Assembly (NCBI GenBank): GCA_965248195.1
Contig: CBDFIQ010000001.1
Location: forward strand, 704,001-768,000
Reading direction: 5' to 3'
Source: Longimicrobiales bacterium
GTDB taxonomy: Bacteria; Gemmatimonadota; Gemmatimonadetes; Longimicrobiales; Gaopeijiaceae
Length of the DNA stretch: 64,000 bases
Made by a program: the position numbers and the translations under genes. Every line of letters starts with the position of its first letter. Position 1 is the stretch's first letter. Shown piece by piece: positions 13,974-41,033 of this stretch. The notes under the pieces are model-generated. The model saw only the letters and a list, made by a program, of their open reading frames with translations. It was not told the DNA's origin and ran no database searches.

Positions 13974-14003
13974 TTGACAGCCCCGAGAAGGGTCGGGTAT
14001 ACT
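13974..14003 (+). promoter_or_regulatory. Sigma70-type promoter
   Basis: TTGACA-N18-TATACT upstream of the USP/respiratory operon. Confidence 0.7.
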
Positions 14004-14378
14004 CACTTCGCGCACCATGCACCATTTGGAACAAGCGCCATTTGATAGGGTGCCGAGGACCGTGCTTTCATTGATCCGAACGCTACGCCTGCGAGCTCGA
14101 AACTCGCCGTCGAGAGCCCTGGTTCAGAGGGGGTCGATCATAGAGATTAGCAGTCTGGTCGTGCTTTGTACGGCTCTCGTTCGCAGGGGGTGACCGGTAA
14201 CCCTTCTGCGCACTGAAATGATGTCAACCGCTGCACGCATCTAGACCGAACCAGATCGTACCCGGATGCCCTTCCGGTTTCGAAGTCGGAGCCCCGCCAC
14301 GCCCGGGGGGGCGGGGGGCGTTTGTGCGATCGGTACGCGAAGGGTGCCAGATAATCAGGGCCTAGGCCCGAGGTGCTT

Positions 14379-16529
14379 ATGTACCGTGAAGTTCTCGTAC
14401 CCGTCGATAACTCCGATAATTCACATTGGGCCGTCGACCGCGCCATCGAACTCTGTAGGCGCTCCGAGGGGCGAATCACCGGCAATCATGTGTACGCGGC
14501 GCGCCTCCACGATGTGCGGTTCCGCCAATTGGAGACAGGACTTCCCGCCCAGTTCCAGACCGCGAAAGAAATCAAGCGGCAGCGGAAGGTTCACGACAAG
14601 CTGATCGAAAAAGGCCTCCAGCTCATCTCGGATTCCTTTCTCGATCAGACCGCCATCAGTTGTGATGCGGCGGGCGTACCGCTGACCCGGCAGCTCCTCG
14701 AGGGCATCAACTATGAGGAGGTGTCTCGGGAGGCCAACCGAGGGGGCGGCCGCCTTCCCAGTTTGATCGGCTTCGATCCGAACATCGCGGACAAGTACGA
14801 CGGCGGTGACAAAGTCCGTAGCGACGTCATCGTGGACGAGGACGGGCGGATCATCGCAGAGGACGAGGAGCAGGATGAGAAGGTCGCGGGGTCGAGTGGT
14901 CGCGACTATGACCTCCTCGCCATCGGTGCTCATGGGATCGGCAAGCAACCCTACTCACAGTTGGGCGGGATGGTCTCGCGGGTCATCCGCCAGGTCGAAA
15001 AGGACACCCTGATCGTCAGGAACGATCGCGCACTGGAAGGCGGTGACTGGATTATCTGTGTCGACGGTTCCTCGTACTCGTACAAGGCCATGCGGCATGC
15101 ATTGGAGATGGCCAAGGAGTTCGGGGCGAAGCTTTATGTGTGCTCGGCCTTCGATGTGGAATACCACCACGCCGTGTTCGGGAATATCAAGGACATTCTC
15201 TCCGTGCAGGCCTCGAAGGTCTTCAAGTTCGAGGAGCAGGAAGAGCTCCATAACAACATCATCGACAAGGGTCTTCTGAAGCTCGCACAGGCCAATCTCA
15301 AGCGCGCCGAGGTGATGGCGCGGGAGTTCCCCGAGGTCCCCGTCGAGACGCAGATCCTCATCGGTAAACCCTTCCAGTGCATCCTTCAGTGGATCGAGGA
15401 GATCGATCCGAGCCTTGTGATCCTCGCACGCCACGGGGGGCACCGGATCGAGGGTACCGACATGGGATCTCAGGCGGACAACCTGTGCCGCCTCTCACCC
15501 ACGAACATCCTGCTCATCGGCACCACCGACGTTCGCCCGGACGACATCCCCTGGATCGAAGAGGACGGTGAGACCGGGCTCGAGTGGGCACCCGATGCCG
15601 AAGTCCGAATTCTTCGGGTCCCGCCGTTCGCGCTCGGGATCGCCCGCAAGGCCGTTGAAGAATACGTACTCGACAACTACGGCCCCGGAGCCAACGGCAC
15701 GTACCGGGAAGAGGCGATCGTGCGGGCGGCCTCGAACGGATCCTCGTCGAACGGACCGTCGGCCGACAGTGATGGGGCGACCCTCTCCGAAGCCGAGTCC
15801 GACACCAACGGAGTGGATACGGGCGCTTCGGTGCCCCCGCTCGGCGCGGGCGGCCTGCCGATGGTCACGGGCGAGCGCCTCGACGAAGCCATCACCAAGC
15901 TGCTTCCGACCCACATGCAGTTGATCATGGGGATCGGCACTGCCGAGGAGCTCGCCCTCGCCGAAGTGAAGGCAGATGAGGCCATGAAGCGGACGCTGGT
16001 CAGCGGCCTGGATGCCGACCCCCAGCCGGACGTACCCATGATTTCCGCCACCTGCCCCTACAGCGGCCATCCGCTCATGCGTGAACGGACCGCGGACGAC
16101 CCGGTCGAGTGGACCCAGGAGGCCTTCGAGCGACTCAAGCTGGTGCCGTTGATCGCGAGGCCACTTGCCCGCAACACGGTGGAGCGATTCGCCCGTGAGA
16201 ACGAATTCTTTAGAGTCACCACGCCTGTGATGGATGAGAACAAGCAGGCCATGATCGAGGCCGACGAGTTCGACATGGACACCATGTTGGTCATGTTCCG
16301 GGAACTCCAGACCAAGCAGATCAAAGCGACAGCCGAGGGCGTCGACGGTATGACTCCCGAGATGCGCAAGTTCATCGACGAGGCCAAGGCCAGCGGCGTG
16401 ACCCGCTGCCCGATTCGGGACGTGGCCGAGGCCGCCGACGACTGCCCGGTGGACTTCAAGACCGTCTCACCGGAGGACGCAAAGGCCGCGATCAAGCAAT
16501 TCATGGACAAGGAACCCAGCGAAGCGTGA
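14379..16529 (+). CDS. Tandem universal stress protein domains plus two PCP_red-like domains
   Basis: VLVPVDNS and ICVDGS USP starts, GAHG/ARHG; WAPDAEVRILRVPPF and WTQEAFERLKLVPLIAR; GAGGT RBS. Confidence 0.8.
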   Translation: MYREVLVPVDNSDNSHWAVDRAIELCRRSEGRITGNHVYAARLHDVRFRQLETGLPAQFQTAKEIKRQRKVHDKLIEKGLQLISDSFLDQTAISCDAAGVPLTRQLLEGINYEEVSREANRGGGRLPSLIGFDPNIADKYDGGDKVRSDVIVDEDGRIIAEDEEQDEKVAGSSGRDYDLLAIGAHGIGKQPYSQLGGMVSRVIRQVEKDTLIVRNDRALEGGDWIICVDGSSYSYKAMRHALEMAKEFGAKLYVCSAFDVEYHHAVFGNIKDILSVQASKVFKFEEQEELHNNIIDKGLLKLAQANLKRAEVMAREFPEVPVETQILIGKPFQCILQWIEEIDPSLVILARHGGHRIEGTDMGSQADNLCRLSPTNILLIGTTDVRPDDIPWIEEDGETGLEWAPDAEVRILRVPPFALGIARKAVEEYVLDNYGPGANGTYREEAIVRAASNGSSSNGPSADSDGATLSEAESDTNGVDTGASVPPLGAGGLPMVTGERLDEAITKLLPTHMQLIMGIGTAEELALAEVKADEAMKRTLVSGLDADPQPDVPMISATCPYSGHPLMRERTADDPVEWTQEAFERLKLVPLIARPLARNTVERFARENEFFRVTTPVMDENKQAMIEADEFDMDTMLVMFRELQTKQIKATAEGVDGMTPEMRKFIDEAKASGVTRCPIRDVAEAADDCPVDFKTVSPEDAKAAIKQFMDKEPSEA

Positions 16530-17959
16530 GCAGCACAACCGATCTCAGGTCCTCCTCCTCGGCAACTCTGGCGCCTCCCGCTCCGGGGCGGCTCGAGACG
16601 GTGTCGCCGAGCGGTAGGTGTGGTCCCTACACTCCGCATATCGTAGCGTGGAACCTCACGAAACGATGCAACCTGGCGTGCGCGCACTGTTATATCTCGG
16701 CGGGTTCCTGGCATGCGGCCGACGATGAGCTTTCAACGGACGAGTGCCTGCGCATCCTCGATGAGATTCTCGACGTGAATCCCCACCCCATGCTGATCCT
16801 CACGGGGGGGGAGCCCCTATTGCGGGACGACCTGGAAACCCTGGCGGAGCGAGCCTCGACGCGGGGCGCCACAGTCGTGGTCGGCACGAATGGGACGCGT
16901 CTGACCGACCAGCGCATCGGCTCTCTGTTGGAGGCCGGTGTCAAGGGTGTCGCCGTCAGCATCGACTCGCTCCGTCCCGAGTATCATGACCGCTTCCGGC
17001 ACGGTGGGGGTGCACTCACGGACACGATGGCGGCTGTCGAGCGCTGCTCCGCTCGTAGGCTCGATTTCGTTATTCAGACGACAGTCACGTCCGGCAATCG
17101 GCACGAGATCGCAGATTTGGCTCGCTGGTCGGCCGAAGCGGGAGCCGTTTCCTTCAACGTCTACTTCGTGGTCCCGACTGGGCGCGCAGAGCATATGCAG
17201 GGCATGAGTCCTGAGGAGAACGACGACGTTCTGCGTGAGCTCGTCGAGCTGGAGGGAACGTATCGCGGTCGCATGATGGTCCGCTCGAAGTGCCAACCCC
17301 AAATCATGCGGCACGTGGTCCAGGGCGATCCGGAGTCTCCCCTGCTGAACTACGAGACTCGCTGTCCATGTGGTGTCCACTACGTGCGCATCACGCCCGA
17401 GGGCAAGGTCACCCCGTGTCCTTACATGCCCGTGGTCGCGGGTGACCTGTTGACGCAGAGCTTTCAGGAGATCTGGGAGTCGTCGCCCGTCTTCACCCAG
17501 CTCAGGTCGGGGGAGCTCGGTGGGCGGTGCGGACTATGCGAATATCGGGAGGTGTGCGGAGGATGCCGCGCCCGCGCCTATGCCGACAGCGGCGACTTCA
17601 TGGGTCCGGATGACTCCTGCGCCTATGAGCCATCGGGAGAGACACCCCTCATTGTGTCTCGCCAATCAGTCTCCTACGGACGGTCAGGCCCGGGTGGGCC
17701 ATTGGTCGCCGACGGCGGCGCGGCCTCCACCGAGCAACCCGCATCGGTCGCACTGGAGTGGTCCCCGGAAGCCCTCGCCCGTATCGACGGCGTACCGAGC
17801 TTCGTTCGGGGGGTGGTCATGGCAAGGGTCGAGAAGTTCGCCCATGACCGAGGGTACGCATGTGTGGATGTGGAAGTCATGGAGGAGGTACGTCGAAACC
17901 TCCCTGTGGATTTCTCCAAGAAACTTCCGTTCTTCTTGGGAAGAGGGGGAACGGCATGA
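16526..17959 (+). CDS. Radical SAM/SPASM protein (AhbC/AhbD/NirJ-like) with C-terminal PCP_red-like domain
   Basis: WNLTKRCNLACAHC, TGGEPLLR, CPCG...PCPY...CGLC....VCGGCRARA. Confidence 0.85.
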   Translation: MSSTTDLRSSSSATLAPPAPGRLETVSPSGRCGPYTPHIVAWNLTKRCNLACAHCYISAGSWHAADDELSTDECLRILDEILDVNPHPMLILTGGEPLLRDDLETLAERASTRGATVVVGTNGTRLTDQRIGSLLEAGVKGVAVSIDSLRPEYHDRFRHGGGALTDTMAAVERCSARRLDFVIQTTVTSGNRHEIADLARWSAEAGAVSFNVYFVVPTGRAEHMQGMSPEENDDVLRELVELEGTYRGRMMVRSKCQPQIMRHVVQGDPESPLLNYETRCPCGVHYVRITPEGKVTPCPYMPVVAGDLLTQSFQEIWESSPVFTQLRSGELGGRCGLCEYREVCGGCRARAYADSGDFMGPDDSCAYEPSGETPLIVSRQSVSYGRSGPGGPLVADGGAASTEQPASVALEWSPEALARIDGVPSFVRGVVMARVEKFAHDRGYACVDVEVMEEVRRNLPVDFSKKLPFFLGRGGTA

Positions 17960-19737
17960 GCTTGAAGCTCCTGGGGGTGATGGGCCTCTCCGCGCTGGCC
18001 ATTCACCTGTTCCCCGAGGTGGCCTGGGCGCAGGATATCGCCGGCCGAAGCTACGGGGACTTCCCCTTGGTCGGGGGGCGTGTGGCGGTCTGGGTCGCGG
18101 CGCAGGTCCACCTTCTCTTCGCGGCGTTCGTGCTCGGCGTGCCCATGTTCGCTGTGGTTGCCGAGGCCATCGGAATGTTCGGGGGGGACTCGAAGTACGA
18201 TAAGCTTGCGAAGGAGTTCACCCGGCTGTTGCTCGTGGCATACTCCGCCACGGCGATCTGGGGAGCGATCCTCTCCTTCCTCCTCATCACGATCTTCCCG
18301 AACCTCTGGATCTACCTTGCGGAGATCTTCGAGGTCTCCATGTGGATCTACGTGGGACTCTTCTTCTTCGAGTCCTTCACGCTCTACCTGTATTACTACG
18401 GCTGGGATCGCTGGAATCAGGGTCGGGCCAAGCTGGGCCACTGGACGTTGGGCATCTTGTTGAACGTCTTTGGCACGGCGGTGATGCTCATTGCCAACTC
18501 GTGGCTCACCTACATGATGAGCCCGCCGGCGGACGTGGGTCCCGACACCGCACCTGGTATGGTCCGAGTGTGGAGCGCCTTCGTGAACGCGACCTGGATG
18601 CCCATCAACATCCACCGGTTAATCGCCAACGTCGTGTTCGGTGGAGCGATCGTGGGCGCGTATGCGGCCTACCGCTTCCTGCTGGCCAGGACCGATGAAG
18701 AGCGCGCCCACTACGACTGGATGGGATACGTGGGAAACCTGATCGCGATCGGCGCGCTCATTGTCCTGCCCTTCGCCGGCTACTACCTCGGCCGAGAGCT
18801 CTACGAGTACAGCCCGCAGATGGGCAACACCCTGATGGGTGGCTTCATGAGCTGGCTCTGGATCATCCAGGCCTTCCTTATCGGGGTGCTCTTCCTGGCG
18901 GGCAACTACTACTTGTGGGTGGGAATGGGGCGGATTCCGGGGGCCGAGCGCTTCACCCCCTACACCAAGTACATGTTGTTCGTGCTCGTGGTGGGCGTGA
19001 TCGTGTGGGCGACGCCGCACACGATGATCGCCAACCGGGAAGAGATCGCCGCCATGGGCGGAACGTACCACCCGCTCCTGGGTGTCCTTGGTGTCATGAG
19101 CGCCAAGAACACGGCTGTGAACATCATGATCTTGACCACGTTCCTCTCGTTCCTGCTCTACGGGCGCGCGAACAACAACCCGACGGTTCCGTGGGCCAGG
19201 ACTGGGACGATGGTGCAGGCGGCTCTGTTCGTGATCTCCGCGCTCATTGTCGTGTTCTACGGGGTGTACGGCTACTTCGTCAGCGCGATCGTTCGCATCG
19301 GTTTCTCGGTTTATCAGGTCGTGGCGGTGCTCGCGACCATCATCGGCGTGGGCGCAATTCATGTGTTCATGATGCGGGGCGCGGAGTCGCGTGGTGCGAT
19401 CCGGTGGGGTCAGATGCCCCCCCGTTCCCAGTACGCGCTGTTCATCCTAGCCGTCACGTTCACATGGCTGATGGGTCTCATGGGCTTCGCCCGGAGCGGC
19501 ATCCGCCAGCACTGGCATGTATGGGAAGTCGTGCGGGACACGAGTGAATGGGCAGAGACGCCGGCGCTCGGGTACGCGGCCGTCGTGATCTCCGCCTGTG
19601 TGCTGATCTTCTTCGTCCTCGTGGCGTTCATTTTCTGGCTCGGTGGCTTGGCCGAGAAACCGTTGGTATCGCAGGCGAGCACGGACACCTCTCCGTCACC
19701 GGGAGGGCCGGAGTTCGCTCCTGCCGCGGGCGACTGA
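17956..19737 (+). CDS. Cytochrome bd oxidase subunit I-like membrane protein (divergent)
   Basis: QVHLLFAAFVLG, FFFES, IANSWL, NIHRLIA, IRQHWHV; about 14 TM segments. Confidence 0.8.
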   Translation: MSLKLLGVMGLSALAIHLFPEVAWAQDIAGRSYGDFPLVGGRVAVWVAAQVHLLFAAFVLGVPMFAVVAEAIGMFGGDSKYDKLAKEFTRLLLVAYSATAIWGAILSFLLITIFPNLWIYLAEIFEVSMWIYVGLFFFESFTLYLYYYGWDRWNQGRAKLGHWTLGILLNVFGTAVMLIANSWLTYMMSPPADVGPDTAPGMVRVWSAFVNATWMPINIHRLIANVVFGGAIVGAYAAYRFLLARTDEERAHYDWMGYVGNLIAIGALIVLPFAGYYLGRELYEYSPQMGNTLMGGFMSWLWIIQAFLIGVLFLAGNYYLWVGMGRIPGAERFTPYTKYMLFVLVVGVIVWATPHTMIANREEIAAMGGTYHPLLGVLGVMSAKNTAVNIMILTTFLSFLLYGRANNNPTVPWARTGTMVQAALFVISALIVVFYGVYGYFVSAIVRIGFSVYQVVAVLATIIGVGAIHVFMMRGAESRGAIRWGQMPPRSQYALFILAVTFTWLMGLMGFARSGIRQHWHVWEVVRDTSEWAETPALGYAAVVISACVLIFFVLVAFIFWLGGLAEKPLVSQASTDTSPSPGGPEFAPAAGD

Positions 19738-21266
19738 TGCAGGATTCGACGGTGGGCATACTGGCGTCGTTCGAGTACGTAGACTCGGCCGTGAACGCCA
19801 TCGGTGAGTTACGGGCGGCCGGCCTCAAGAAGATCACCGCTTACATGCCGTATCCCGAGGCTCAAATCGAAGAGGCGCTCGGGTACGATCAGAGTCCCGT
19901 CAGGGTGTGGGCGTTGGCGGGTGGGCTCTGCGGCGCTGCCGGTGGGTTCGCTCTCACGTCCTTTACCTCGATGGATTGGCCGTTGGTCACGGGTGGCAAG
20001 CCGATCCTTTCGATTCCCGCGTACGTGATCATCTCGTTCGAGATGATGGTGTTGTTCGGTGTGTTGTCTACCGTGATTGGGCTCTTCATCAACAGTCGCC
20101 TTCCTTATGTCAAGCCGATGGTCGTCTACGATCCGGAATTCAGCGCGGGCAAGTTCGGGGTCTACGTGACCGTGGCGGCGGATGGCCTCGACCGAGCCAG
20201 GGGCATCCTGAAGGGTCAGGACCCCGCTGAAATCCGGGAAGATCCGGTGGGGGTAGCCCATGCGCCGCCAGGAATCGACTTAGGACCTGAAATTCAGGAA
20301 GAGCCGGTGGGGGTGGCGCCGCCAGGATTCGAATTAGGATCTGCAATTCCGGAAGATCTGGTGGAGGGGGCCCATACGCCGCCAGGATTCGAATTAGGAT
20401 CTGAAATTCGGGAAGATCCGGTGGGGGTGGCCCATGCGTTGTCAGGATCCGACTCAGGATACGAGTCTCGCTCGATGCTGTTGGAAAACCTGAAGATTTT
20501 CGCGGTCGTGATCGGAACGCTTGCCACCTTCACGCTCGTGGCCAATTCCATTCCGCAGGTACAGTCAGAGGTGCCCGTGGACCTCAGCTTCGGCGCCAAC
20601 GTTAGCGCCGATGAGCTGATGTCGTCCGGGGAGACCCTCTTCACCGGGGCCGGCGGCTGTCTAGCCTGTCACGGGTTGGGCACGAGGGCTCCGAACCTTC
20701 TCACCGACCACGCCGGCACGGGCACGATCGGCGTCCGGTGCACGAATCGCGTGCCCGGTGAGGACTGCAAGGCATACCTTTACAGCTCGATGGTGGACCC
20801 GGGCGCCTACCTCGTGGAGGACTTCGAACCGATCATGCCCGACATGCGTCGCTCTCTCTCGAACCAGCAGATCTGGGCGCTCGTGGCCTACTTGCAGTCC
20901 GTGGGGGGCGTGGTGACCGTAACGGGTGCAGACATCGGTGTTGGCGACGATGGCTCGAGCGTGGCAGGAGCCCCGACCGCAGGGGCGCCTGCGACCGCCT
21001 CTGCGGATCCCGTCGAGATCATGCGCGCCAACGCGTGCCTCGGTTGCCACGTCCTCGCCGGAGAGGGAACAGAGATGGGTCCCCCGTTCGACGGGATGGG
21101 CGCGCGCGTGGACGCCGACTATATACGAGAATCGATTCTGGAGCCGGCGGCCGGCGCATCAGAGGGCTTCGAGACATTCTTAGGCGCAATGCCTCCGATT
21201 TTCGGCAGCCAGCTCACTGGGAGTCAGTTGGAAGCCGTCGTGCAGTTCCTGGTAAGCCAACGCTAA
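19737..21266 (+). CDS. DUF3341 (ActD-like) fused to membrane-anchored diheme cytochrome c
   Basis: YMPYP, DWPLVTGGKP, FEMMVLF, FSAGKFG; CLACH and CLGCH with downstream MP ligands. Confidence 0.8.
   Translation: MQDSTVGILASFEYVDSAVNAIGELRAAGLKKITAYMPYPEAQIEEALGYDQSPVRVWALAGGLCGAAGGFALTSFTSMDWPLVTGGKPILSIPAYVIISFEMMVLFGVLSTVIGLFINSRLPYVKPMVVYDPEFSAGKFGVYVTVAADGLDRARGILKGQDPAEIREDPVGVAHAPPGIDLGPEIQEEPVGVAPPGFELGSAIPEDLVEGAHTPPGFELGSEIREDPVGVAHALSGSDSGYESRSMLLENLKIFAVVIGTLATFTLVANSIPQVQSEVPVDLSFGANVSADELMSSGETLFTGAGGCLACHGLGTRAPNLLTDHAGTGTIGVRCTNRVPGEDCKAYLYSSMVDPGAYLVEDFEPIMPDMRRSLSNQQIWALVAYLQSVGGVVTVTGADIGVGDDGSSVAGAPTAGAPATASADPVEIMRANACLGCHVLAGEGTEMGPPFDGMGARVDADYIRESILEPAAGASEGFETFLGAMPPIFGSQLTGSQLEAVVQFLVSQR
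20227..20460. repeat. Four imperfect 54-60 bp tandem repeats in the ActD-cytochrome c linker
   Basis: Unit ~ctgaaat(c/t)cgggaagatccggtgggggt(a/g)gcccatgcgccgccagga(a/t)tcga...; protein EIREDPVGVAHAPPG.DLG. Confidence 0.9.
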
Positions 21267-21285
21267 GGGGAGGCGAGAAACAGTG

Positions 21286-22092
21286 ATGGGCAAGCACTTG
21301 AAGCATCCCTTCGGCCAGGCGGTCCTGGTCCTCGTGGTTTCTTACCTCTTGTTGGATTACGGAATCGCGTACATCTCGCCTTTGATCGGAATCACGAGCG
21401 ATCCGGTCCCGATCCCGAATTCCGTGCTGCTTCAGTATCTCATCACCGTAGGCGTGGGGATCCTCCTCTGGGTCAGCGACAACGATGCCCGCTGGGCTGA
21501 GTTCAAGGCGCCGATGCATCGCGTGATGGTGGACCCGGACCGGAAGACGGCTCGGAATTCGCTCATGGTGCTGGTGCCGATCCTCGTGGCGTTCGCGACC
21601 TTCAATCAGGTGAAACCCTCCGTGGCAGCGCCTGTGACCCTGCGCTCGATTCACCCGTCAGCTCCGGGCCAGTTCGACTTCCAGGGGACGACCGTGGAGC
21701 TCGCCGGCCTGGAGAATCCCTTGCGCTCGCGGGGCTCCCTGGAGGAGCACTACGAAGAAGGGAAGCGCGTCTACTATGAGAACTGTCTGGGCTGTCATGG
21801 TGACGGCCTGAACGGCCAGGGGCATTACGCGCATGGATTCAACCCTGCCCCCTTGAGCTTCCAGGACGTCGGCACCATCGCGCAGCTCGTCGAAAGCTTC
21901 GTTTTCTGGCGGATCGCGAAGGGGGGTCCCGGGCTCCCCACGGAGGGGGCCCCGTGGAACTCGGCCATGCCGGCATGGGAGGACTTCCTCACCGAAGATG
22001 AGATCTGGTCCGTGATCATCTTCTTGTATGACCAGACCGGTCACGAGCCGCGCACGTTTGAAGAGGAAGCCGGGGAAGGGGAGGCGGAATGA
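21286..22092 (+). CDS. Membrane-bound monoheme cytochrome c
   Basis: Three N-terminal TMs, CLGCH, SAMPAW. Confidence 0.85.
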   Translation: MGKHLKHPFGQAVLVLVVSYLLLDYGIAYISPLIGITSDPVPIPNSVLLQYLITVGVGILLWVSDNDARWAEFKAPMHRVMVDPDRKTARNSLMVLVPILVAFATFNQVKPSVAAPVTLRSIHPSAPGQFDFQGTTVELAGLENPLRSRGSLEEHYEEGKRVYYENCLGCHGDGLNGQGHYAHGFNPAPLSFQDVGTIAQLVESFVFWRIAKGGPGLPTEGAPWNSAMPAWEDFLTEDEIWSVIIFLYDQTGHEPRTFEEEAGEGEAE

Positions 22093-23717
22093 GTTTTTCC
22101 GGTGTTCCCAAGTGGGCGCCCCTGGCCGTTTTGTTCGCTGCGGCGTCGGCATTGGCCGTGGGCGGCTGTGGAGATGGAGGAGGAGGAGGAGGCGTGGGCA
22201 ACCTGAGCGCGCAGGACGGCGACGATCTCGGCCAGGTCACCTATGACCGTTGGTGTGCGGGCTGCCACGGTGTGGACGGGACCGGCGACGGCCCCGGAGC
22301 CGGTTACATGCTTCCGCGGCCCCGGGATTTCACCCAGGCGCTGTATCAGATTCGTACGACGGCCAGCGGCGAGCTCCCGACGGATGAGGATATACTCGCC
22401 ATCATAGACCAGGGGATGCCGGGCACGACGATGCCTGGGTGGGAGGATCTTCTTTCGAACGACGAGAGAGACTCGCTGGTCCAGTATCTCAAGACGTTCT
22501 CTCGCTTCTTCTCTCCCGATGAGGTGCCGCAGCCGCTCGAGTTCGGTCGCGCCACCCGGTCGAATGCGGACGTGCTCGCTGAAGGTGAGCGGCTGTTCCG
22601 TGAAGTAGCAGATTGCGCGGCGTGTCACGGGGAAGGGGGCCGAGGCGACGGAGAGTCCTCGCCGACGCTGGCTGATGACGGGGACTTTCCCGTTCGCGCG
22701 GCTGATCTGACTGAAAACTGGCTGTTCAACGGCGGCGGAGACGCCGAGGACATCTACCGTCGACTGTTGACGGGTCTGGACGGCACACCCATGCCGAGCT
22801 TGGCCGACGTCATCACGGCGGGTGTCATCACCAGCGATCAGCTCTGGGCCATCGCGCACTACGTTCGCAGTCTTGCTCCGGAGGACCCGCCGGGAATCAC
22901 CGAGGTGGTCCGGGGCGTCCTCTTCGAGGACGTTCCGCTTCCCTCCTCGGTCGGCGACGAGGCGTGGGATGCCGTCGAGCGCGCGTACCTCCCGCTCGTT
23001 GGACAGATCATTGTGATGCCGCGCTGGTTCGACCCCCGGGTGGACGGCGTTTGGGTGCAGGCCGCGCATGACGGAGAAACGGTGGCCGTGCGCGTTACCT
23101 GGAGCGACCCCAACAACAGCCCCGATCCTCTGTGGGCGGACTGGAAGTCCTTGGTGACCTCGCTCATGCAGCCGAAAGAGGGCGACCCACCGGATGAAGG
23201 GCCGACGCCCGATCAACTCGTTGTCCAGTTCCCGATGCAGATGCCGGAAGGGATGGAGCTGCCTTTTTTCCTGGGCGGAGACAACCGCCGTCCGGTGTAT
23301 CTGTGGCAGTGGCGAAGTGACGGTGATGGCGCACTCGAAGGCGAGGCCCGCGGCATCGGGACCGAGGCCTTCCAATCGGAGGGGCTAGACCTTACCGTAG
23401 ACGCCTCACATGCCGACGGCCAATGGCGGGTCATGTTCACGAGGCCGCTCGTCACGGAGAACGAAGGCGACCTCGATTTCGTGATTGGTGAGGCCATTCC
23501 GATGGCCTTGTTCGCCTGGGATGGAGACAACGGGGAATCAGGCACCAGAGGTGCGGTCAGCTCCTGGTACTTCTTGTTCCTCGAGGACGCCACTCCAGCA
23601 ACTGTATTTGTAGCCCCCGCTTTGGCTATGATGTTGACGGCCGCGTTGGGGTTCTTGGTGGTAGGCCGCGCCCAGAAGAGGGAGAGGGAGGGCGGTGAAG
23701 TAGAAAGAGAGCGGTGA
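22089..23717 (+). CDS. Diheme cytochrome c lipoprotein with EB_dh-like (heme b DOMON) domain and C-terminal TM
   Basis: Lipobox VGGC; CAGCH, CAACH, PRPRDF, GTTMP/GTPMP; WSD, GQWRVMFTRPL, AWDG. Confidence 0.85.
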   Translation: MSFSGVPKWAPLAVLFAAASALAVGGCGDGGGGGGVGNLSAQDGDDLGQVTYDRWCAGCHGVDGTGDGPGAGYMLPRPRDFTQALYQIRTTASGELPTDEDILAIIDQGMPGTTMPGWEDLLSNDERDSLVQYLKTFSRFFSPDEVPQPLEFGRATRSNADVLAEGERLFREVADCAACHGEGGRGDGESSPTLADDGDFPVRAADLTENWLFNGGGDAEDIYRRLLTGLDGTPMPSLADVITAGVITSDQLWAIAHYVRSLAPEDPPGITEVVRGVLFEDVPLPSSVGDEAWDAVERAYLPLVGQIIVMPRWFDPRVDGVWVQAAHDGETVAVRVTWSDPNNSPDPLWADWKSLVTSLMQPKEGDPPDEGPTPDQLVVQFPMQMPEGMELPFFLGGDNRRPVYLWQWRSDGDGALEGEARGIGTEAFQSEGLDLTVDASHADGQWRVMFTRPLVTENEGDLDFVIGEAIPMALFAWDGDNGESGTRGAVSSWYFLFLEDATPATVFVAPALAMMLTAALGFLVVGRAQKREREGGEVERER

Positions 23718-23751
23718 ATTAGAAAGAGAGACGGTGAAGTAGAAAGAGAGA
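23693..23751. repeat. 19-20 bp tandem repeat x3 spanning the stop codon
   Basis: cggtgaa(g/t)tagaaagagag(a) x3. Confidence 0.85.
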
Positions 23752-23804
23752 CACCGAATTCGAGACAGCGAATAGGTGAACCATTTTATCATATTGGAGG
23801 CATA

Positions 23805-24650
23805 ATGTCGGATCGATTTGAATTGCGCGGGGTCGTCGCGCCCACACTCATGCTGCTGGTCATGGCCGGCTGCGGTGGCGGAGACGGAGGTGGCGCCTCC
23901 GGTGGCGCCGGAGGCGGTGCCGCCGTGGAAAACCCGGTGGATGCGGCCACGGCCGGCAACATCGCGGGCTCCATCGTCTTCGAGGGAGACGCGCCCAGCA
24001 TGGACGTCATCAACATGGGCAGCGAGTCCGTGTGTGCGGACAAGCACGCGTCGTCGCCGATGATCGAGGAGGTTGTCGTCAACAGCAACGGTACTCTTGC
24101 CAACGTGTTCGTCTACGTGAGGGAAGGGCTGGAGAGCCTCCAGTTCCCAACGCCCGCAGCGGTACTGCTCGACCAGAATGGATGCGTCTACATTCCGCAC
24201 GTTTTGGGCGTGATGGCGGGCCAAGACATTACGATCAGGAACAGCGACGGGCTCTTGCACAACATCAACGCAACACCCGCCGAACAGCGCGGATTCAACA
24301 CCAGTCAGCCGGTCGCCATGGAGACCACGCGAAGCTTCGGGACGGCCGAGGTCATGGTTCCGCTGCGCTGTGACGTTCATGGTTGGATGAACGCTTATGT
24401 TGGCGTCCTCGATCATCCGTACCACTCCGTCTCGAACGGCAGTGGCGCCTTCGACCTGTCGACGCTGCCTCCGGGCGAGTACGTGATCGAAGCGTGGCAT
24501 GAGCGCTACGGAACTCAGACCCAGAACGTGACGGTGACCACCGGTGAGACCGCCGAGGTCACGTTCACGTTCAGCCCATCTATGGCCCAGAACGCCGTGG
24601 TGCCTCTCGGTACTCCGATCGACTTTCACGCAATCGCGGAAGCATCCTAA
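23805..24650 (+). CDS. Lipoprotein with cupredoxin-like and carboxypeptidase-regulatory-like domains
   Basis: Lipobox MAGC; LDQNGC, LHNIN, CDVHGWM type-1-Cu-like motif, AWHE. Confidence 0.75.
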   Translation: MSDRFELRGVVAPTLMLLVMAGCGGGDGGGASGGAGGGAAVENPVDAATAGNIAGSIVFEGDAPSMDVINMGSESVCADKHASSPMIEEVVVNSNGTLANVFVYVREGLESLQFPTPAAVLLDQNGCVYIPHVLGVMAGQDITIRNSDGLLHNINATPAEQRGFNTSQPVAMETTRSFGTAEVMVPLRCDVHGWMNAYVGVLDHPYHSVSNGSGAFDLSTLPPGEYVIEAWHERYGTQTQNVTVTTGETAEVTFTFSPSMAQNAVVPLGTPIDFHAIAEAS

Positions 24651-24748
24651 GTGGCTACGGCGTCTGCCGGTCCACTCCCTGAACGGACCGGCAGGGGCCT
24701 CTCCACTACAACTGCTAGACTCACACTCCAGCTCGGGAGACGAGTGGG

Positions 24749-25435
24749 ATGAGGTATTTTTCCTGGGTGATGCCGGACAACGTCGTGTCGACGTTCGGGC
24801 CAGCTCTAGACAACCTGTGGCTCGTGATCCTTTGGATCACGGGTATCATCTTCTTCGCCACGGAGATCGTCTTGTTGGTCTTCATGGTGAAGTACCGCCA
24901 CAAGGAGGGACGTAAGGCGGAGTACATCCACGGCAGCAATAAGGCCGAGATTATCTGGACGACGATCCCCTTCGTCATCGTCATGGGTTTGGCCTTCTAC
25001 TCGAAGGGCATCTGGGACGAGATCCGCGATCAAAGCCGCATCCCGGCCGACGCATATGAGATCAACATGATAGCCAGTCAGTTCGAGTGGAACGCCACCT
25101 ATGCGGGGGCCGACGGAGAGTTCGACACGTCGGACGATTTCGTTTCCCTAAACGCACTGCACATTCCGGTCGCTCAACCCGTTGTAGTCCAGTTGATGGC
25201 CCAAGACGTGATCCACTCGTTCTTTCTACCCGAGTTCCGGGTCAAGCAGGATGCGGTGCCCGGCCACGTCACCCCGGTCTGGTTCGAGGCGACACGGACC
25301 GGTGAGTTTACCCTGGCCTGCGCGGAGCTCTGCGGGCTCGGGCACTATAGGATGGGGGGGACGGTCATCGTCCATTCACAGGCTGATTTCCAAGATTGGC
25401 TCGCGGAGCAGCAAGCCGAAGCGGAGGATGACTGA
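24749..25435 (+). CDS. coxB: Cytochrome c oxidase subunit II (no fused cytochrome c)
   Basis: DVIHSF, KQDAVPG, CAELCGLGHYRM CuA motif. Confidence 0.95.
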   Translation: MRYFSWVMPDNVVSTFGPALDNLWLVILWITGIIFFATEIVLLVFMVKYRHKEGRKAEYIHGSNKAEIIWTTIPFVIVMGLAFYSKGIWDEIRDQSRIPADAYEINMIASQFEWNATYAGADGEFDTSDDFVSLNALHIPVAQPVVVQLMAQDVIHSFFLPEFRVKQDAVPGHVTPVWFEATRTGEFTLACAELCGLGHYRMGGTVIVHSQADFQDWLAEQQAEAEDD

Positions 25436-27231
25436 TGAGCACGACCACTGCGACGGAAACGCACGCCGGACCCGCTGAGCACCACGAGCTCGGCTTCATC
25501 CGGACGTACATTTTCTCTACCGATCACAAGATGATCGCGAGACAGTTCCTGTTCAGCGCGCTGCTGTTCCTGCTGCTGGGAGGATTGCTCGCGGTCATGG
25601 TTCGCTGGCAGCTCGGTTTCCCGGGACGACCCCTGCCCTCTTTCATAAGGGGTATCTTTCCGGACACCATGGCACCGGGCGGCATCATCCTACCGGAGTT
25701 CTACAATTCCCTGGTCACGATGCACGCCACTTTCATGGTGTTCTTCGCGCTCATGCCGCTCATGGCGGGGGTCTTCGGCAATCTCCTGATCCCGCTCCAG
25801 ATCGGTGCGGAGGACATGGCGTTCCCCCGGATCAACATGGCGTCCTTCTGGATCATGCCTGTCGCGGGATTCATCATGCTGGCGAGCTTCTTCGTCGAGG
25901 GAGGCGCCGCTGGAGCCGGTTGGACCTCCTATGCGCCGCTCAGCAGCTCGGGCGAGTGGACGGGCGTCTACATGGGCCAGATCCTCTGGCTGGTCTCTCT
26001 GATCGTGCTGGGCTTCTCCTCGATCCTGGGCGCTTTGAACTACGTCTCGACCGTGATCAACATGCGGGCGCCGGGGATGACGTGGTTCCGGATCCCGCTG
26101 GGCACGTGGTCGCTGTTCATCACCGCGTGGCTGCTTCTGTTGGCGATCCCGATTCTCACGGGCGGCCTGATTCTGCTCCTCTTCGATCAGACGCTCGGAA
26201 CGGCCTTCTTCCGCCCCGAGGGCAGCGGCGAGCCTCTCCTCTGGCAACACATTTTCTGGTTCTTCGGCCACCCCGAAGTGTACATCCTGATCCTTCCCGC
26301 GATGGGCTTCGTCTCCGAAGTGATCGCATGCCGGTCCCGGAAGCCGATCTTCGGCTACCACTCCATGGTGATCGCCTTGGTGTCCATCGCGTTCTTGTCA
26401 TGGGTCGTCTGGGGTCACCACATGTTCCAGAGCGGCATGAACCCGCTCCTCGGCATGACCTTCGTGGTGACGACGGTAGTGATCGCGGTCCCCTCGGCAA
26501 TCAAGGTATTCAACTGGTTGGGAACACTCTGGCGTGGGGACATCCACTTCGACGCGCCGCTCCTGCACGCGGTCGCGTTCGTGTCGCTCTTCATCATCGG
26601 AGGGCTGTCGGGGATGTTCATGGCCGCGGCTCCCGTCGACATCTACATCCACGACACGTACTTCATCGTGGCGCACCTCCACTACGTTCTGGTGGGTGGG
26701 AGCCTCTTCGGAATTTTCGCCGGGATTATCTTCTGGTATCCGAAGATGTTCGGCCGGATGATGCACGAGGGATGGGGCAAGGTGCACTTCGGGCTCTCGT
26801 TCCTCTTCTACAACCTGGCGTTCTTCCCGATGCACAATCTGGGTATACAGGGGATGATGCGCCGGATCTACGATCCCAACCAGTACGAGTTCCTACAGGG
26901 GCTACAGCCTCTGAATACCTTCATCTCGATCAGCATATTCCTCTTCGCGGCCACGCAGGTCATCTTCGCGTTCAACTTCCTGTGGAGCCTGCGCTACGGT
27001 AAGGTAGCCGGCAACAACCCCTGGAGGTCCAGCACGCTCTTGTGGACCACTCCATCTCCCCCGCCCCACGGCAACTTCCCGGAGATGCCCATCGTGTACC
27101 GCGGCCCATACGAGTACAGCCATCCTGACCGAGAGGAGGACTTCTGGCCTCAGGACGAGCCGCCCGAGATGAGCGAAGCGGGCGGACAGACGGTCGCATC
27201 CCCGACCCCCGAACCCGTTCCTGGAGACTGA
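25435..27231 (+). CDS. ctaD: Cytochrome c oxidase subunit I, A1 type
   Basis: TDHK, WFFGHPEVY, WGHH, VAHLHYV. Confidence 0.97.
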   Translation: MSTTTATETHAGPAEHHELGFIRTYIFSTDHKMIARQFLFSALLFLLLGGLLAVMVRWQLGFPGRPLPSFIRGIFPDTMAPGGIILPEFYNSLVTMHATFMVFFALMPLMAGVFGNLLIPLQIGAEDMAFPRINMASFWIMPVAGFIMLASFFVEGGAAGAGWTSYAPLSSSGEWTGVYMGQILWLVSLIVLGFSSILGALNYVSTVINMRAPGMTWFRIPLGTWSLFITAWLLLLAIPILTGGLILLLFDQTLGTAFFRPEGSGEPLLWQHIFWFFGHPEVYILILPAMGFVSEVIACRSRKPIFGYHSMVIALVSIAFLSWVVWGHHMFQSGMNPLLGMTFVVTTVVIAVPSAIKVFNWLGTLWRGDIHFDAPLLHAVAFVSLFIIGGLSGMFMAAAPVDIYIHDTYFIVAHLHYVLVGGSLFGIFAGIIFWYPKMFGRMMHEGWGKVHFGLSFLFYNLAFFPMHNLGIQGMMRRIYDPNQYEFLQGLQPLNTFISISIFLFAATQVIFAFNFLWSLRYGKVAGNNPWRSSTLLWTTPSPPPHGNFPEMPIVYRGPYEYSHPDREEDFWPQDEPPEMSEAGGQTVASPTPEPVPGD

Positions 27232-27234
27232 GGC

Positions 27235-27891
27235 ATGAGTCACGGAGCAGTCGCGACCATGGACCGCAAGCCCATGCCCGGGATGATGGTCTACAACAAG
27301 AAACTGGGCATGTGGGTGTTCCTGCTCAGCGAGGTCATGTTCTTTACGTCGTTGATCGGCACCTACGTTATCCTGCGCTTCGCCCATCCGGACCATTGGA
27401 CCGACGTGGGCGTCGTTCTCAACGTTCAGTTGACCGCATTGAATACATTTTTCCTGATCTGTTCCTCAGTGACGATGGTCAAAGCGTTCGCGGCCATACA
27501 GGAAGGGGATCAAAAGGGCCTCCAGAGGTGGTTGCTCGCCACGATCTTGATCGGAGCGTCCTTCGTAGGCATCCAACTTGTCGAGTACACCGCACTGGCG
27601 GGTGAGGGCTTTGTTCCGATGCTCGACTCCTACCATGCCGTGGGGCGCGGCAATCCGCACGAGGGTCCTTCCCTAGGCGGCCCGCTCTACGGAGCCACCT
27701 TCTATGCTATGACCGGGTTTCACGGGGCCCACGTTACGATCGGGGTTCTATGCTTGATTTTCGTTTACATCAGGTCGCTCCAGGGCGCTTACACGGCACA
27801 AAGCCTTGAGGGCGTGGAGGTGATCGGCCTCTACTGGCACTTCGTCGATCTCGTTTGGATTCTCCTGTTTACTATCGTCTACCTAATCTGA
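27235..27891 (+). CDS. ctaE: Cytochrome c oxidase subunit III
   Basis: WVFLLSE, TGFHGAHV, YWHFVDLVW. Confidence 0.95.
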   Translation: MSHGAVATMDRKPMPGMMVYNKKLGMWVFLLSEVMFFTSLIGTYVILRFAHPDHWTDVGVVLNVQLTALNTFFLICSSVTMVKAFAAIQEGDQKGLQRWLLATILIGASFVGIQLVEYTALAGEGFVPMLDSYHAVGRGNPHEGPSLGGPLYGATFYAMTGFHGAHVTIGVLCLIFVYIRSLQGAYTAQSLEGVEVIGLYWHFVDLVWILLFTIVYLI

Positions 27892-27904
27892 AGGCGGGAG
27901 CAAC

Positions 27905-28174
27905 ATGGAAGAGCAAGAACACGCGCACCCGCGCTATATCCTGATTTGGGTCATACTTCTCGTGCTCACGCTGGGCGAGTTAGGATACGCCTTCCTGGAT
28001 CTACCGAAGGTCGTATTGGCGGTGGGACTGATCCTCATGGCGATTTGGAAGGCGCTCTTGGTGGCGATGTATTACATGCATCTTCGGTATGAGCCGGCCC
28101 GACTGTGGATTCTGGCGATCTCTCCGCTTCCGTTGGCGGTCATCCTCGTTTTGGCGGTCATCACCGAGTTCTAG
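27905..28174 (+). CDS. Cytochrome c oxidase subunit IV family
   Basis: KALLVAMYYMHLRYE; three TMs. Confidence 0.9.
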   Translation: MEEQEHAHPRYILIWVILLVLTLGELGYAFLDLPKVVLAVGLILMAIWKALLVAMYYMHLRYEPARLWILAISPLPLAVILVLAVITEF

Positions 28175-28466: not shown

Positions 28467-29429
28467 ATGAGCACGCGGTTTCGAGGCCTCGTTCCCCGCG
28501 GAGTAATCGCCGGAGTGATCGGCGCTACTGCGCTCGCTTTCTGGTTTTTGGTGATCGACGGCTCTCAGGGTGAGCCCTTCCGTACGCCGGGATTTCTGGG
28601 GGGTGCTCTCTTGGGCACCGACGCCCTCGAACCGCGCGCCGGTCCGGTCATTCTTTACACGCTCCTTCACTACGTCGCCTTCATCGGCGTCGGATTGGGC
28701 GTAGCGTGGTCCCTCTCCAAGATCCACACGACGCCGAACATTTTCCTGGGGCTGGTCCTCGGCTTCGGGCTCTACGATCTGGTCTTTTACACGGGCCTCA
28801 CGGTGACCGGGGTGGACGTCGTCGGCGAGTTCGGTTGGCCCCCCGTCCTGATGGGTAATCTGATCGCCGGTGTATCTCTCATGAGCTTTCTCCACTTCAC
28901 GGGTGCCAGGCCGCCCATATCGTGGTGGACAATCCTCGGCCAGAACAGGGTGTTCAAGGAGGGCCTGGTCGCGGGACTCGTCGGGGCGGGGACGATCGCG
29001 CTGTGGTTCTTCATCGTCGACATGGGACGAGGACAGCCCTTCTTCACACCGGGCGCGCTCGGCTCGGTGCTCTTTCTCGGCTCGACGGAGGCGACTGCCG
29101 TGAGCGTCTCGGTCGCAACCGTGGCCGGCTACAGCATCCTCCACATCGGCGCCTTCTTCGCCACAGGCTTCATCGCCGCCGCCATCGCCGGTTACGCTGA
29201 GGACACGCCTCCGCTCATCATCGGTGCGGTGATGCTCTTTGTGGCCTTCGAGGCCTTCTTCATGGCACTCATGGCCCTTTCGGCCGAGTTTCTACTCAGC
29301 GCCTTGGCTTGGTGGGCGATCGTGGTGGGTAACGTTCTAGCCACCTTGACCATGGGATCCTACCTCTGGGTCAAACACCCGAAACTACGGGAGGCGCTCG
29401 CGGCCAATCCGATGGACAAGACGGCCTGA
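28467..29429 (+). CDS. Polytopic membrane protein with internal duplication
   Basis: Two repeats of G..AG..GA...A.WF...D...G.PF.TPG.LG...Y..LH. Confidence 0.8.
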   Translation: MSTRFRGLVPRGVIAGVIGATALAFWFLVIDGSQGEPFRTPGFLGGALLGTDALEPRAGPVILYTLLHYVAFIGVGLGVAWSLSKIHTTPNIFLGLVLGFGLYDLVFYTGLTVTGVDVVGEFGWPPVLMGNLIAGVSLMSFLHFTGARPPISWWTILGQNRVFKEGLVAGLVGAGTIALWFFIVDMGRGQPFFTPGALGSVLFLGSTEATAVSVSVATVAGYSILHIGAFFATGFIAAAIAGYAEDTPPLIIGAVMLFVAFEAFFMALMALSAEFLLSALAWWAIVVGNVLATLTMGSYLWVKHPKLREALAANPMDKTA

Positions 29430-39842: not shown

Positions 39843-41033
39843 TCACCCTTCGAGCGGGGGCATCATGAGAATGAGGGCCAAAAGGGTCGTTCTCTCGAGA
39901 AGCTTGCTCACGCGGACATGCTCGTGGTTGGCGTGAGCACCGTCCCCCACGGCGCCCAATCCATCCACCGTCGCGGTAAAGAGACTCGTCGTGTTTCCGT
40001 CCGACGCACCGCCGGATTTGGCACCCTCGAGCTCGAGACCCAAGCGCCTCCCGCAACCCTGAACCGCCTCCCACAGAATCCGGTTTCGTGGAGTTGCCTC
40101 CATCGGATTGCGGTCGAGGACCAACTCCACCTCCAGCCGAGTACCTGGCGTGGTCGCCTCCAGACCCAGGATGACATCGTTGACCCATCGACCGTCGGCC
40201 AGCGTGGCTACTCTCACGTCCACTGTGGCGCGGCACTCTCCGGCAACGACGTTTACGCGCGTCCCGCCTGAAACGGTCCCAACGTTGACCGTTATGCCCC
40301 GCTCGGAATCGGTCAACGCATGAAGGGCCTGGATGACGAGGGCCATCTCCTGGATCGCACTCGCACCCTCCTCGGGTGCGAGACCCGAGTGCGAGGCGCG
40401 CCCGACGACCCGGATCTCGAAGCGCCCCACACCGCGACGCGTCGTTTTGATGAGCCCCTCGGGGCCGAGGGCCGGCTCCAGCACAAGGACCCGACTCGAC
40501 ACCTGGGCCAACCACTCGACGTGACCCTGTGATTCGGGGCTGCCGATTTCCTCGTCGGAGTTCAGGAAGATCGTAGGAGCGACGGTCGGCTCGAGCCCGA
40601 GCGCCGAAAGGGCCTCGAGAGCAAATACCATCTGGACAATCCCGGCCTTCATGTCGAAGACTCCCGGACCCCGAATGACGTCCTCCCCTTCGTTCCACTC
40701 CGTCGGCATGCCCTGCAGCGTACCGATCGGCCACACCGTGTCCGTGTGTCCCATCAGAAGCTGGACCGGTGTGCCCTCGTGGGCATGCCTCGCCTCCCCG
40801 GGCGCCTCGTCGCGCGACAGGTAGAGGTGGCCGCCCGTTTTTTCGCCGGGAAAGAGCCGGGCCCCGAAGCCAATCGCCCTGAGCCGCCGAGTCAAAAGCT
40901 CCTGAATGGCGTGCTGAGACTCGGGCACCAGGGAAGGGGACTCCAAATTGACCAATTCCATGAGCAGACTGACGATGTCGTCTCGCCGCTCAGCGAGGAA
41001 GTCCCCGACGCCCGTGACCTCAAGGTCCGGCAT
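39843..41033 (-). CDS. M20 metallopeptidase (carboxypeptidase G2-like)
   Basis: GHTDTVW, GPGVFDMKAG, SDEEIGS, GASDGN, GAH. Confidence 0.9.
   Translation of the reverse strand: MPDLEVTGVGDFLAERRDDIVSLLMELVNLESPSLVPESQHAIQELLTRRLRAIGFGARLFPGEKTGGHLYLSRDEAPGEARHAHEGTPVQLLMGHTDTVWPIGTLQGMPTEWNEGEDVIRGPGVFDMKAGIVQMVFALEALSALGLEPTVAPTIFLNSDEEIGSPESQGHVEWLAQVSSRVLVLEPALGPEGLIKTTRRGVGRFEIRVVGRASHSGLAPEEGASAIQEMALVIQALHALTDSERGITVNVGTVSGGTRVNVVAGECRATVDVRVATLADGRWVNDVILGLEATTPGTRLEVELVLDRNPMEATPRNRILWEAVQGCGRRLGLELEGAKSGGASDGNTTSLFTATVDGLGAVGDGAHANHEHVRVSKLLERTTLLALILMMPPLEG

Follow-up and report, generated by a model that had tools for sequence, protein, structure and literature searches.

We analysed a 64,000-nt stretch of the genome of a Longimicrobiales bacterium (phylum Gemmatimonadota), hereafter called the window, and focused on what appears to be a terminal aerobic respiratory operon. 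This operon encodes a cytochrome bd-like protein of the OR-N type, three membrane cytochromes c, a cupredoxin and the only aa3 oxidase detected in the genome. The gene for ActD, a subunit of alternative complex III (ACIII), has moved out of the act cluster into this operon, where it is fused via a repeat-built linker to the N-terminal anchor of a dihaem cytochrome c. All coordinates are positions in the window, unless a contig is named, and domains were assigned by Pfam and NCBIfam searches.

Gene content of the operon

The genes form one co-oriented, tightly packed operon on the forward strand (14373-28174), with start and stop codons that overlap or lie a few bases apart at most gene junctions. 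The first gene encodes a 718-amino-acid protein with a Usp and a PCP_red domain (14373..16529; Pfam Usp 2.1e-28, PCP_red 3.7e-14). It is followed by a NirJ/AhbD-like radical SAM/SPASM protein with a PCP_red domain (16526..17959; Pfam Radical_SAM, SPASM and PCP_red), which is predicted to modify tetrapyrroles. Start and stop codons overlap at 16526-16529 and again at 17956-17959, where the stop codon of the radical SAM gene overlaps the ATG of the gene for the cytochrome bd-like subunit I homologue (17956..19737; 593 amino acids; Cyt_bd_oxida_I, PF01654). The next gene, encoding the ActD/dihaem c fusion (19737-21266; Pfam ActD at 140 bits plus two cytochrome c domains), starts at 19737 with a one-base overlap with the bd-like stop codon.

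Downstream of the fusion lie genes for a two-helix membrane monohaem cytochrome c (21283..22092; Pfam cytochrome c, one CxxCH), a dihaem cytochrome c with an EB_dh/NxrC-like domain, a C-terminal anchor and a lipobox-like N-terminus (22089..23717; two Pfam cytochrome c domains and EB_dh), and a type-1 copper (cupredoxin) lipoprotein with a C-terminal CarboxypepD_reg-like domain (23805..24650; assigned from ligands, profile and model fold). The operon ends with the oxidase genes coxB (24749..25435; Pfam COX2, TIGR02866), coxA (25435..27231; PF00115, 4.1e-146), coxC (27235..27891; PF00510, 8.8e-27) and coxIV, encoding the prokaryotic subunit IV COX4_pro (27905..28174; PF03626, 1.1e-13).

The original prediction for this DNA had proposed a run from 17956 to 28174 with a CydA-like protein, an ActD/dihaem c fusion, a monohaem c, a dihaem c/EB_dh protein, a cupredoxin-like lipoprotein and coxBAC-IV. 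The run is indeed co-oriented, although the operon already begins at 14373 with the Usp/PCP_red and radical SAM genes. Pfam recovered the whole gene set except the cupredoxin, which was identified by other evidence (see below). The count of five CxxCH motifs was also correct; they are divided 2+1+2 over the three cytochrome c genes.

Location and ancestry of ActD

Family searches covered the whole genome assembly (4.86 Mb in 2 contigs, 91.8% complete). They located an ActA-B-C-E-F cluster at C1:~665,400-672,400, which is 36-46 kb before the start of the window and ~50 kb from the operon. The cluster encodes a pentahaem ActA, a 1010-amino-acid ActB, ActC, a lipoprotein monohaem ActE and ActF. 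Nothing lies between ActC and ActE, and ActD is the only subunit missing. Because ActA, B, C, E and F are all present, the organism has an ACIII with only ActD absent from its own cluster. The ActD in our operon is the sole ActD of the assembly, and the only NrfD gene in the genome is the ActC of the act cluster. Hence, the earlier claim that ActA/B/C/F, Rieske and cytochrome b genes are absent is valid for the window and invalid for the genome, which also contains a cytochrome b gene and a Rieske match.

The only Rieske match in the genome is a small open reading frame of 118 amino acids at C1:951,715. The lone cytochrome b gene (PF00033/PF13631; G000:C1:1175836-1176366, L006 7744-8805) has no adjoining Rieske gene. 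A bc1 complex was considered as alternative quinol oxidase and dropped, as the sole cytochrome b lacks an adjoining Rieske gene.

In four of four genomes from other genera or families (G061, G064, G039, G082) the act cluster has the order ActA-B-C-D-E-F, versus ActA-B-C-E-F in the source genome (G000) and its congener G224. The ActD domain of the fusion (19737..20252; PF11821, 5.9e-41; 140 bits against a cut-off of 25.7) shows 64% (G061), 61%, 46% and 35% identity to the four ActDs encoded inside these ACIII clusters, in parallel with ActB and ActC. It can be aligned end to end with them, with the periplasmic loop kept, and it matches the solved ActD chains 6lod_D, 8k9e_D, 6f0k_D and 6btm_D (E 2.5e-18 to 1.9e-9). 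The single Glu of transmembrane helix 2 is kept in all six sequences compared (6/6) and in the solved ActD chains. The protein thus has the properties of an ActD throughout, except that its gene lies outside the act cluster in this lineage. By these comparisons it is a displaced ACIII subunit, orthologous to the ActD inside the ACIII clusters of sister genera.

These results bear directly on the central idea of the original prediction, in which the bd-like protein occupies the slot of ActC. It would then replace ActC, with ActD as its partner, as a module that transfers electrons from quinol or another donor to cytochrome c and feeds aa3, and it would not reduce O2. The genome owns an ActA-B-C-E-F cluster with an ActC of its own, and its ActD is orthologous to the ActD of ACIII. 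Furthermore, ActD was found next to the bd-like gene in only one of the 62 other Gemmatimonadota loci with enough flanking sequence, and that locus belongs to the same genus. For this genome these findings do not support the ActC slot, nor the view that the presence of ActD marks the bd-like protein as a stand-in for ActC. The part of the interpretation in which the operon works together with ACIII parts and aa3 is retained here as an inference.

The displaced ActD might also have been co-opted. In that case it would no longer serve ACIII, and would only provide an extra membrane/cytoplasmic anchor or an assembly domain for the dihaem cytochrome c of the bd-like unit. The position of the gene, within the bd-like operon and overlapping the bd-like stop codon, would suit such a role. 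ACIII composition is also flexible, with Nitrospirales variants without ActF and ActG described in excerpts of PMC12342949. Against co-option, the protein has kept the Glu of helix 2 as well as the loop through which ActD touches ActB in R. marinus ACIII, and purifying selection on it is as strong as on ActC, with equal dN/dS between G000 and G224 (one genome pair; ActD 0.16, ActC 0.16, ActB 0.13). Moreover, there is no second ActD in the assembly to serve ACIII, and ActD is matched in 288 of the 301 sampled genomes of the phylum. We consider co-option very improbable.

In the R. marinus structure both termini of ActD are cytoplasmic, and ActD packs on helices 4 and 5 of ActC (PMC5928083, structural passages). 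The fusion joins the natural C-terminus of ActD to the natural N-terminal anchor of the dihaem cytochrome. Since the ActD termini are cytoplasmic, a C-terminal fusion of ActD to the N-in anchor of a periplasmic cytochrome is topologically coherent. The linker (20227..20460), predicted to be cytoplasmic, is built from a 60-nt unit repeated four times in tandem (Tandem Repeats Finder: period 60, 4.0 copies, 78% matches) and is shorter in G224. The anchor and the dihaem cytochrome c (c2) follow at 20442..21266, with one predicted helix and CxxCH motifs at fusion residues 308 and 434.

An assembly artefact was excluded as the origin of the fusion. The same combination of ActD and cytochrome c domains was found in 74 of 112 database matches (68-100% identity, 391-516 amino acids), and contigs from three studies span either the junction of linker and anchor or that of the bd-like and ActD genes. 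At position 19750, several contigs of two sequencing runs agree with our sequence as far as the ActD start, beyond which they carry another ActD-like N-terminal coding sequence; they probably stem from diverged relatives of the fusion clade in other samples.

The nearest unfused relative (L064, with an 86% identical bd-like protein) has its ActD 45 kb away on the opposite strand. In a quick tree, the two sequences with the fusion form a clade (SH-aLRT 99) nested among unfused sequences. Given the separate ActD of this relative and the nested position of the clade, the fusion is a derived state.

A fusion of ActD with ActE is known from Ignavibacterium album (IALB_1390; PMC3362086). As in our operon, the C-terminus of ActD is there fused to a c-type cytochrome. 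However, the fusion of I. album lies inside the act cluster and joins two ACIII subunits, whereas here ActE remains in the act cluster and the fusion partner of ActD is another module's first cytochrome. The ActD domain resembles that of solved alternative complexes III (6f0k, 6btm, 6lod, 8k9e), and the genome has ActA, B, C, E and F. In contrast to known ACIII, ActD is encoded ~50 kb from the other act genes, in a bd-like/aa3 operon, and its fusion partner is a dihaem cytochrome other than ActE. A literature search, which did not extend to the supplements of Murali et al., returned no earlier mention of an ActD that left the act cluster to fuse with the first cytochrome of such a module. Hence, what is new here is the relocation of ActD and its fusion to this cytochrome; the bd-like family and its cytochrome and cupredoxin neighbours are already in print.

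The bd-like protein

The bd-like protein belongs to the cytochrome bd superfamily by its PF01654 score of 83.1 bits (cut-off 26.2), although of the 418 profile positions only 3-243 are matched. Alignments to CydA of Geobacillus (5doq_A) and to CydA of a menaquinol oxidase (9r2g_A) show that the equivalents of His19, Glu107 and His186 are kept. H52 corresponds to His21 and E139 to Glu108 of 5doq_A; they are kept in 33 and 32 of 34 sequences, respectively. The core of the first four helices, with the equivalents of His19 and Glu107, is thus present. The residue equivalent to haem ligand Glu99 (Glu101 of 5doq_A) is replaced by Tyr132. In total, nine residues (H52, E70, Y132, E139, H162, H220, H372, H519 and H521) are kept in 31-34 of the 34 sequences, which come from at least four phyla.

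The structural model has 13 long helices and an N-terminal signal-like helix (pLDDT 74), and the hydropathy profile shows 13 peaks. Neither hydropathy nor the model gives a long periplasmic loop after helix 6, where a Q-loop would lie, and the loops between the predicted helices are short. The protein contains no CxxCH motif. No other protein of the operon is as conserved: over 21 orthologues, 238 of 593 columns of the bd-like protein are invariant, compared with 39 of 228 for CoxB. Its full-length identity to a protein of Nitrospira/Manganitrophaceae is 39%. Searches of the assembly yielded neither a CydB (PF02322) match nor a second PF01654 gene, which bears out the claim of a bd subunit I-like gene without cydB.

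The missing Q-loop, the lost Glu99 equivalent and the missing CydB separate the protein from quinol-oxidising CydAB. The lack of a quinol site, the lack of a haem c motif and the 13-14 helices agree with the 14-helix OR-N proteins, as described in the sections on family features of Murali, Gennis & Hemp 2021 (bioRxiv 10.1101/2021.01.16.426971). Hence, by sequence the bd-like protein fits the OR-N branch, as a NIDE0901-like, Q-loop-less, 14-helix protein of the OR-N1/N2 type as the family is described.

Lucker et al. 2013 describe such a bd-like oxidase with 14 helices, of which three replace the Q-loop, next to genes for mono- and dihaem cytochromes, cupredoxins and an alternative NxrC (PMC3578206, in the passages on this oxidase). 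Our protein shares with the OR-N proteins of Nitrospira, Nitrospina and Kuenenia the N-terminal core of CydA, the equivalents of His19 and His186, the absence of a Q-loop, ~14 helices, and the lack of CydB and of a second cydA-like gene. It is likewise encoded together with monohaem and dihaem cytochromes c, an NxrC/EB_dh-like protein and a cupredoxin. In contrast to these OR-N proteins, it comes from a member of the Gemmatimonadota, its operon includes an aa3 oxidase, and there is no NXR. Our literature search found no paper that joins Gemmatimonadota and the bd-like protein.

The same data bear on the activity of the protein. For a role as replacement of ActC, the loss of the Glu99 equivalent is a point in favour, and an ACIII-like role was raised by Lucker et al. 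2013 (same passages of PMC3578206); the absence of a Q-loop, the short loops and the limited PF01654 match speak against it. Another possibility is that the bd-like protein neither reduces O2 nor oxidises quinol. It would then be a haem hub in the membrane, or an enzyme that acts on some other substrate, and be co-expressed with aa3. Detoxification of NO or peroxide and reverse electron flow to quinone are examples of such functions. The four extra conserved His residues (H162, H372, H519 and H521, in 31-34 of 34 sequences) would agree with this, as would the dedicated NirJ/AhbD-like radical SAM gene that is linked to the unit in several phyla, and the homologues in NXR clusters, one of which belongs to the anaerobe Kuenenia (PMC3578206, same passages). 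Conversely, the two-haem core with the His19 and Glu107 equivalents is kept. Excerpts of recent literature treat OR-N as the likely cytochrome-c-fed terminal oxidase of Nitrospirales and Nitrospinota, which is itself an assumption for which experiments are lacking (PMC10839748, PMC12342949). We consider a function outside oxygen reduction and quinol oxidation unlikely.

A second bd-like paralogue, 50-54% identical and matching in two pieces, was seen in four genomes of the phylum (G060:C8:63919-65769; G086:C93:155-2119; G127:C1:2114175-2115992; G290:C98:8837-10732). Possible identities are an OR-N1-like partner and a gene that is split or carries a frameshift.

Cytochromes, cupredoxin and oxidase

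The dihaem c/EB_dh protein matches the NCBIfam model DMSO_red_II_gam (6e-25), and its EB_dh domain matches EbdC (2ivf_C, E 2.5e-8) and NxrC of Kuenenia (7b04_C, E 3.4e-8). In the cupredoxin lipoprotein, Pfam detected only the C-terminal CarboxypepD_reg domain. Its identity as a type-1 copper protein, as first proposed, is borne out by the conserved ligands, a profile match and the predicted fold. At least 95% of 21 orthologues share His152, Cys189, His192 and Met195, and likewise the lipobox-like Cys23. A profile built from 26 orthologues matches the type-1 copper protein 5fc9_A (E 2.3e-4) and amicyanins (E 0.01-0.05). The AlphaFold model (pLDDT 84.6) retrieved amicyanin, plastocyanin and pseudoazurin in Foldseek, with probability 1.0 and a TM-score of ~0.7.

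The oxidase, with CuA-containing CoxB, CoxA, CoxC and CoxIV, is an A-type haem-copper cytochrome c oxidase, with haems predicted to be a and a3. CoxB scores 164 bits with TIGR02866 (cut-off 147.7), and H156, C191, E193, C195, H199 and M202, the CuA ligands, are conserved in 21 orthologues. CoxA scores 487.7 bits with PF00115 and 625.5 with TIGR02891, below the cut-off of 670.75; it is the single COX1-family (PF00115) match in the genome. As CoxB carries a CuA site but lacks a cytochrome c domain of its own, the aa3 oxidase needs an electron carrier. Some carriers of the operon (L045 at 14206-18453, and also L080, L089 and L106) have a second, divergent coxBAC cluster (33-49% identity) beside it.

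The radical SAM protein scores 288 bits with NirJ2 and 276 bits with AhbD of NCBIfam, both below the cut-offs of 500. It is therefore best described as a relative of NirJ and AhbD that belongs to neither equivalog.

Conservation of the operon

The bd-like protein was matched in 86 of the 301 sampled genomes of the phylum, representing 42 of 127 genera, at 70-88% identity. The other 215 genomes yielded no match, so that the protein is an accessory one. A check proposed with the original prediction was whether carriers lack ACIII. They do not: ActD was matched in 84 of the 86 carriers, which indicates that these 84 have ACIII.

Gene order was compared in 72 Gemmatimonadota loci and 28 loci of other phyla (Methylomirabilota/Rokubacteria, Acidobacteriota, a metagenome-assembled genome of Rhodothermales, and others). 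Counts refer to loci with enough flanking sequence. The 72 Gemmatimonadota loci combine fetched loci with those of a scan of named genomes; some genomes occur in both of these sets, so that not all loci are independent. In 20 of 20 loci, from 20 genomes and 7 families, twelve genes were found in the same order, including those for Usp, radical SAM, bd-like protein, c2, monohaem c, c2/EB_dh, cupredoxin and CoxBAC-IV. Across Gemmatimonadota, Usp was present upstream of the bd-like gene in 56/56 loci and radical SAM in 68/69. A c2 cytochrome followed the bd-like gene in 61/62 loci (27/27 in other phyla), with the monohaem c in 60/60 (24/24), c2/EB_dh in 55/55 (22/22), the cupredoxin in 53/54 (13/21) and CoxB in 54/54, compared with aa3 genes in 11/20 loci of other phyla. 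Hence, the gene set and gene order of the operon are conserved across Gemmatimonadota, and a unit of four genes (bd-like, c2, monohaem c and c2/EB_dh) is conserved over at least four phyla. The synteny expected in the original prediction was thus found, with the exception of ActD, whose position here is shared by the single congeneric locus mentioned above.

The radical SAM and Usp/PCP_red genes seem to be tied to the bd-like unit rather than to the oxidase, since they are linked to it where aa3 is absent. In L112 and L115 (NC10/Methylomirabilales) and L139 (Rhodothermales), Usp/PCP_red and radical SAM genes lie beside the bd-like unit and no aa3 genes are nearby.

In eight of 22-23 loci outside Gemmatimonadota, genes for ActA, ActB and a small cytochrome c directly precede the bd-like gene, with no NrfD gene in the operon; an ActC match was found in none of 22 loci outside Gemmatimonadota. 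This arrangement would favour a bd-like protein that replaces ActC, as would the operon that the unit shares with aa3 in all Gemmatimonadota loci with sufficient flanking sequence and in 11 of 20 loci elsewhere. However, NrfD genes were found 7-35 kb away in five of the five genomes with ActA/ActB-bd-like operons that were checked, and 84 of 86 Gemmatimonadota carriers have ACIII. Considering all evidence, we regard replacement of ActC as highly unlikely. Full replacement of NrfD subunits in the ActA/ActB-bd-like genomes was dropped on account of these nearby NrfD genes. A fusion of the Acidobacteriota-type bd-like gene to cytochrome c was dropped as well; in L131 the small cytochrome has a reading frame of its own.

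The split operons of Acidobacteriota and the TO_3/TO_4 of 'Ca. Manganitrophus noduliformans' (PMC9040806, in the parts on these complexes) resemble our operon in that genes for ACIII parts accompany those for a bd-like protein and its cytochromes. In Acidobacteriota, the bd-like unit is joined by ActA and ActB, with the NrfD subunits in another nearby operon, whereas in our genome ActD alone has moved.

Neighbouring features

A promoter-like site upstream of the operon (13974..14003, forward strand; TTGACA-18-TATACT) has 11 of 12 consensus matches; it is a consensus match only and does not in itself indicate function. After coxIV, the forward strand encodes a membrane protein of 320 amino acids and ~8 helices (28467-29429) with no family match and only a weak sub-threshold Pfam hit; homologues with 37-82% identity recur near cox genes in many related Gemmatimonadota loci. 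On the reverse strand at 41020-45130, genes with FAD_binding_4 and FAD-oxidase_C, with FAD_binding_4, and with Fer4 and CCG domains form a glycolate/lactate oxidase-like set that looks ordinary.

Discussion

Frequent clustering and functional coupling of ACIII genes with cytochrome c oxidases are described in PMC3362086, and the ACIII-aa3 supercomplex of Flavobacterium johnsoniae is among the closest known systems. In our operon, the ActD fusion likely ties the quinol-oxidising ACIII physically to the terminal segment of the respiratory chain. From the fusion, the conserved gene order and the ActA/ActB-bd-like operons of other phyla, we infer that the operon products, the ACIII parts and aa3 may work as one assembly.

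Our favoured explanation, to which we assign a probability of roughly 50%, is a terminal aerobic operon in which ActD-c2 docks on ACIII and the bd-like protein is a cytochrome-c-fed oxygen reductase beside aa3. ActD would still assemble beside ActC in ACIII, and the dihaem cytochrome c would thereby be held at ACIII. Electrons from quinol would then pass via ACIII to the tethered dihaem c, and from there via the other cytochromes and the cupredoxin to the CuA of aa3. A branch of this path would lead to the haems of the bd-like protein, taken here as an oxygen reductase that receives its electrons from cytochrome c. The bd-like protein possibly carries a haem modified by the NirJ/AhbD-like radical SAM protein, and the PCP_red proteins may help to supply it, since the radical SAM and PCP_red genes travel with the bd-like unit in several phyla.

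Several observations weigh against this explanation. Two oxidases of different kinds in one operon would be unusual. In the bd-like protein the Glu99-equivalent haem ligand is a Tyr, and no equivalent of Met393 was identified in it. The Lys201 ligand of EbdC aligns to a Gly in the EB_dh domain, whose binding of haem b is unconfirmed. With ~65 residues the linker is long; such a tether constrains co-localisation and specifies no docking site. All protein contacts proposed here are predictions from gene data, and the dN/dS values come from one genome pair only. The fusion occurs in a single lineage and so reveals little about the other 61 of 62 loci, and 215 of the 301 genomes have no match to the bd-like protein. 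Relatives of the bd-like/ActD junction occur in contigs of RNA libraries (metatranscriptomes), which show presence rather than transcription, as DNA carry-over is possible and they give no expression level. Finally, the excerpts of PMC10839748 and PMC12342949 indicate that O2 reduction has never been measured for any OR-N protein.

A more far-reaching proposal is that the OR-N unit is an add-on that plugs into ACIII and forms, with aa3, one quinol-to-oxygen megacomplex with two different O2-reducing sites. The NxrC/EB_dh-like subunit would sit on ActB, the iron-sulfur subunit, as the gamma subunit sits on the beta subunit in type II DMSO reductases, and the dihaem c would lie beside ActD and ActC. 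The ActD fusion and the Acidobacteriota ActA/ActB-bd-like operons would then be two independent genomic footprints of the same assembly. We put this proposal forward only tentatively and consider it rather doubtful.

ACIII subunit genes can be scattered among operons, and because of this scattering, genomes called 'ACIII incomplete' from single clusters can mislead genome-based metabolic reconstruction. Major nitrifiers are assumed to use OR-N proteins as their terminal oxidases, although no OR-N protein has so far been purified or assayed. An ACIII subunit that is covalently joined to the first cytochrome of the unit offers a natural handle on the partners and the electron source of the OR-N unit.

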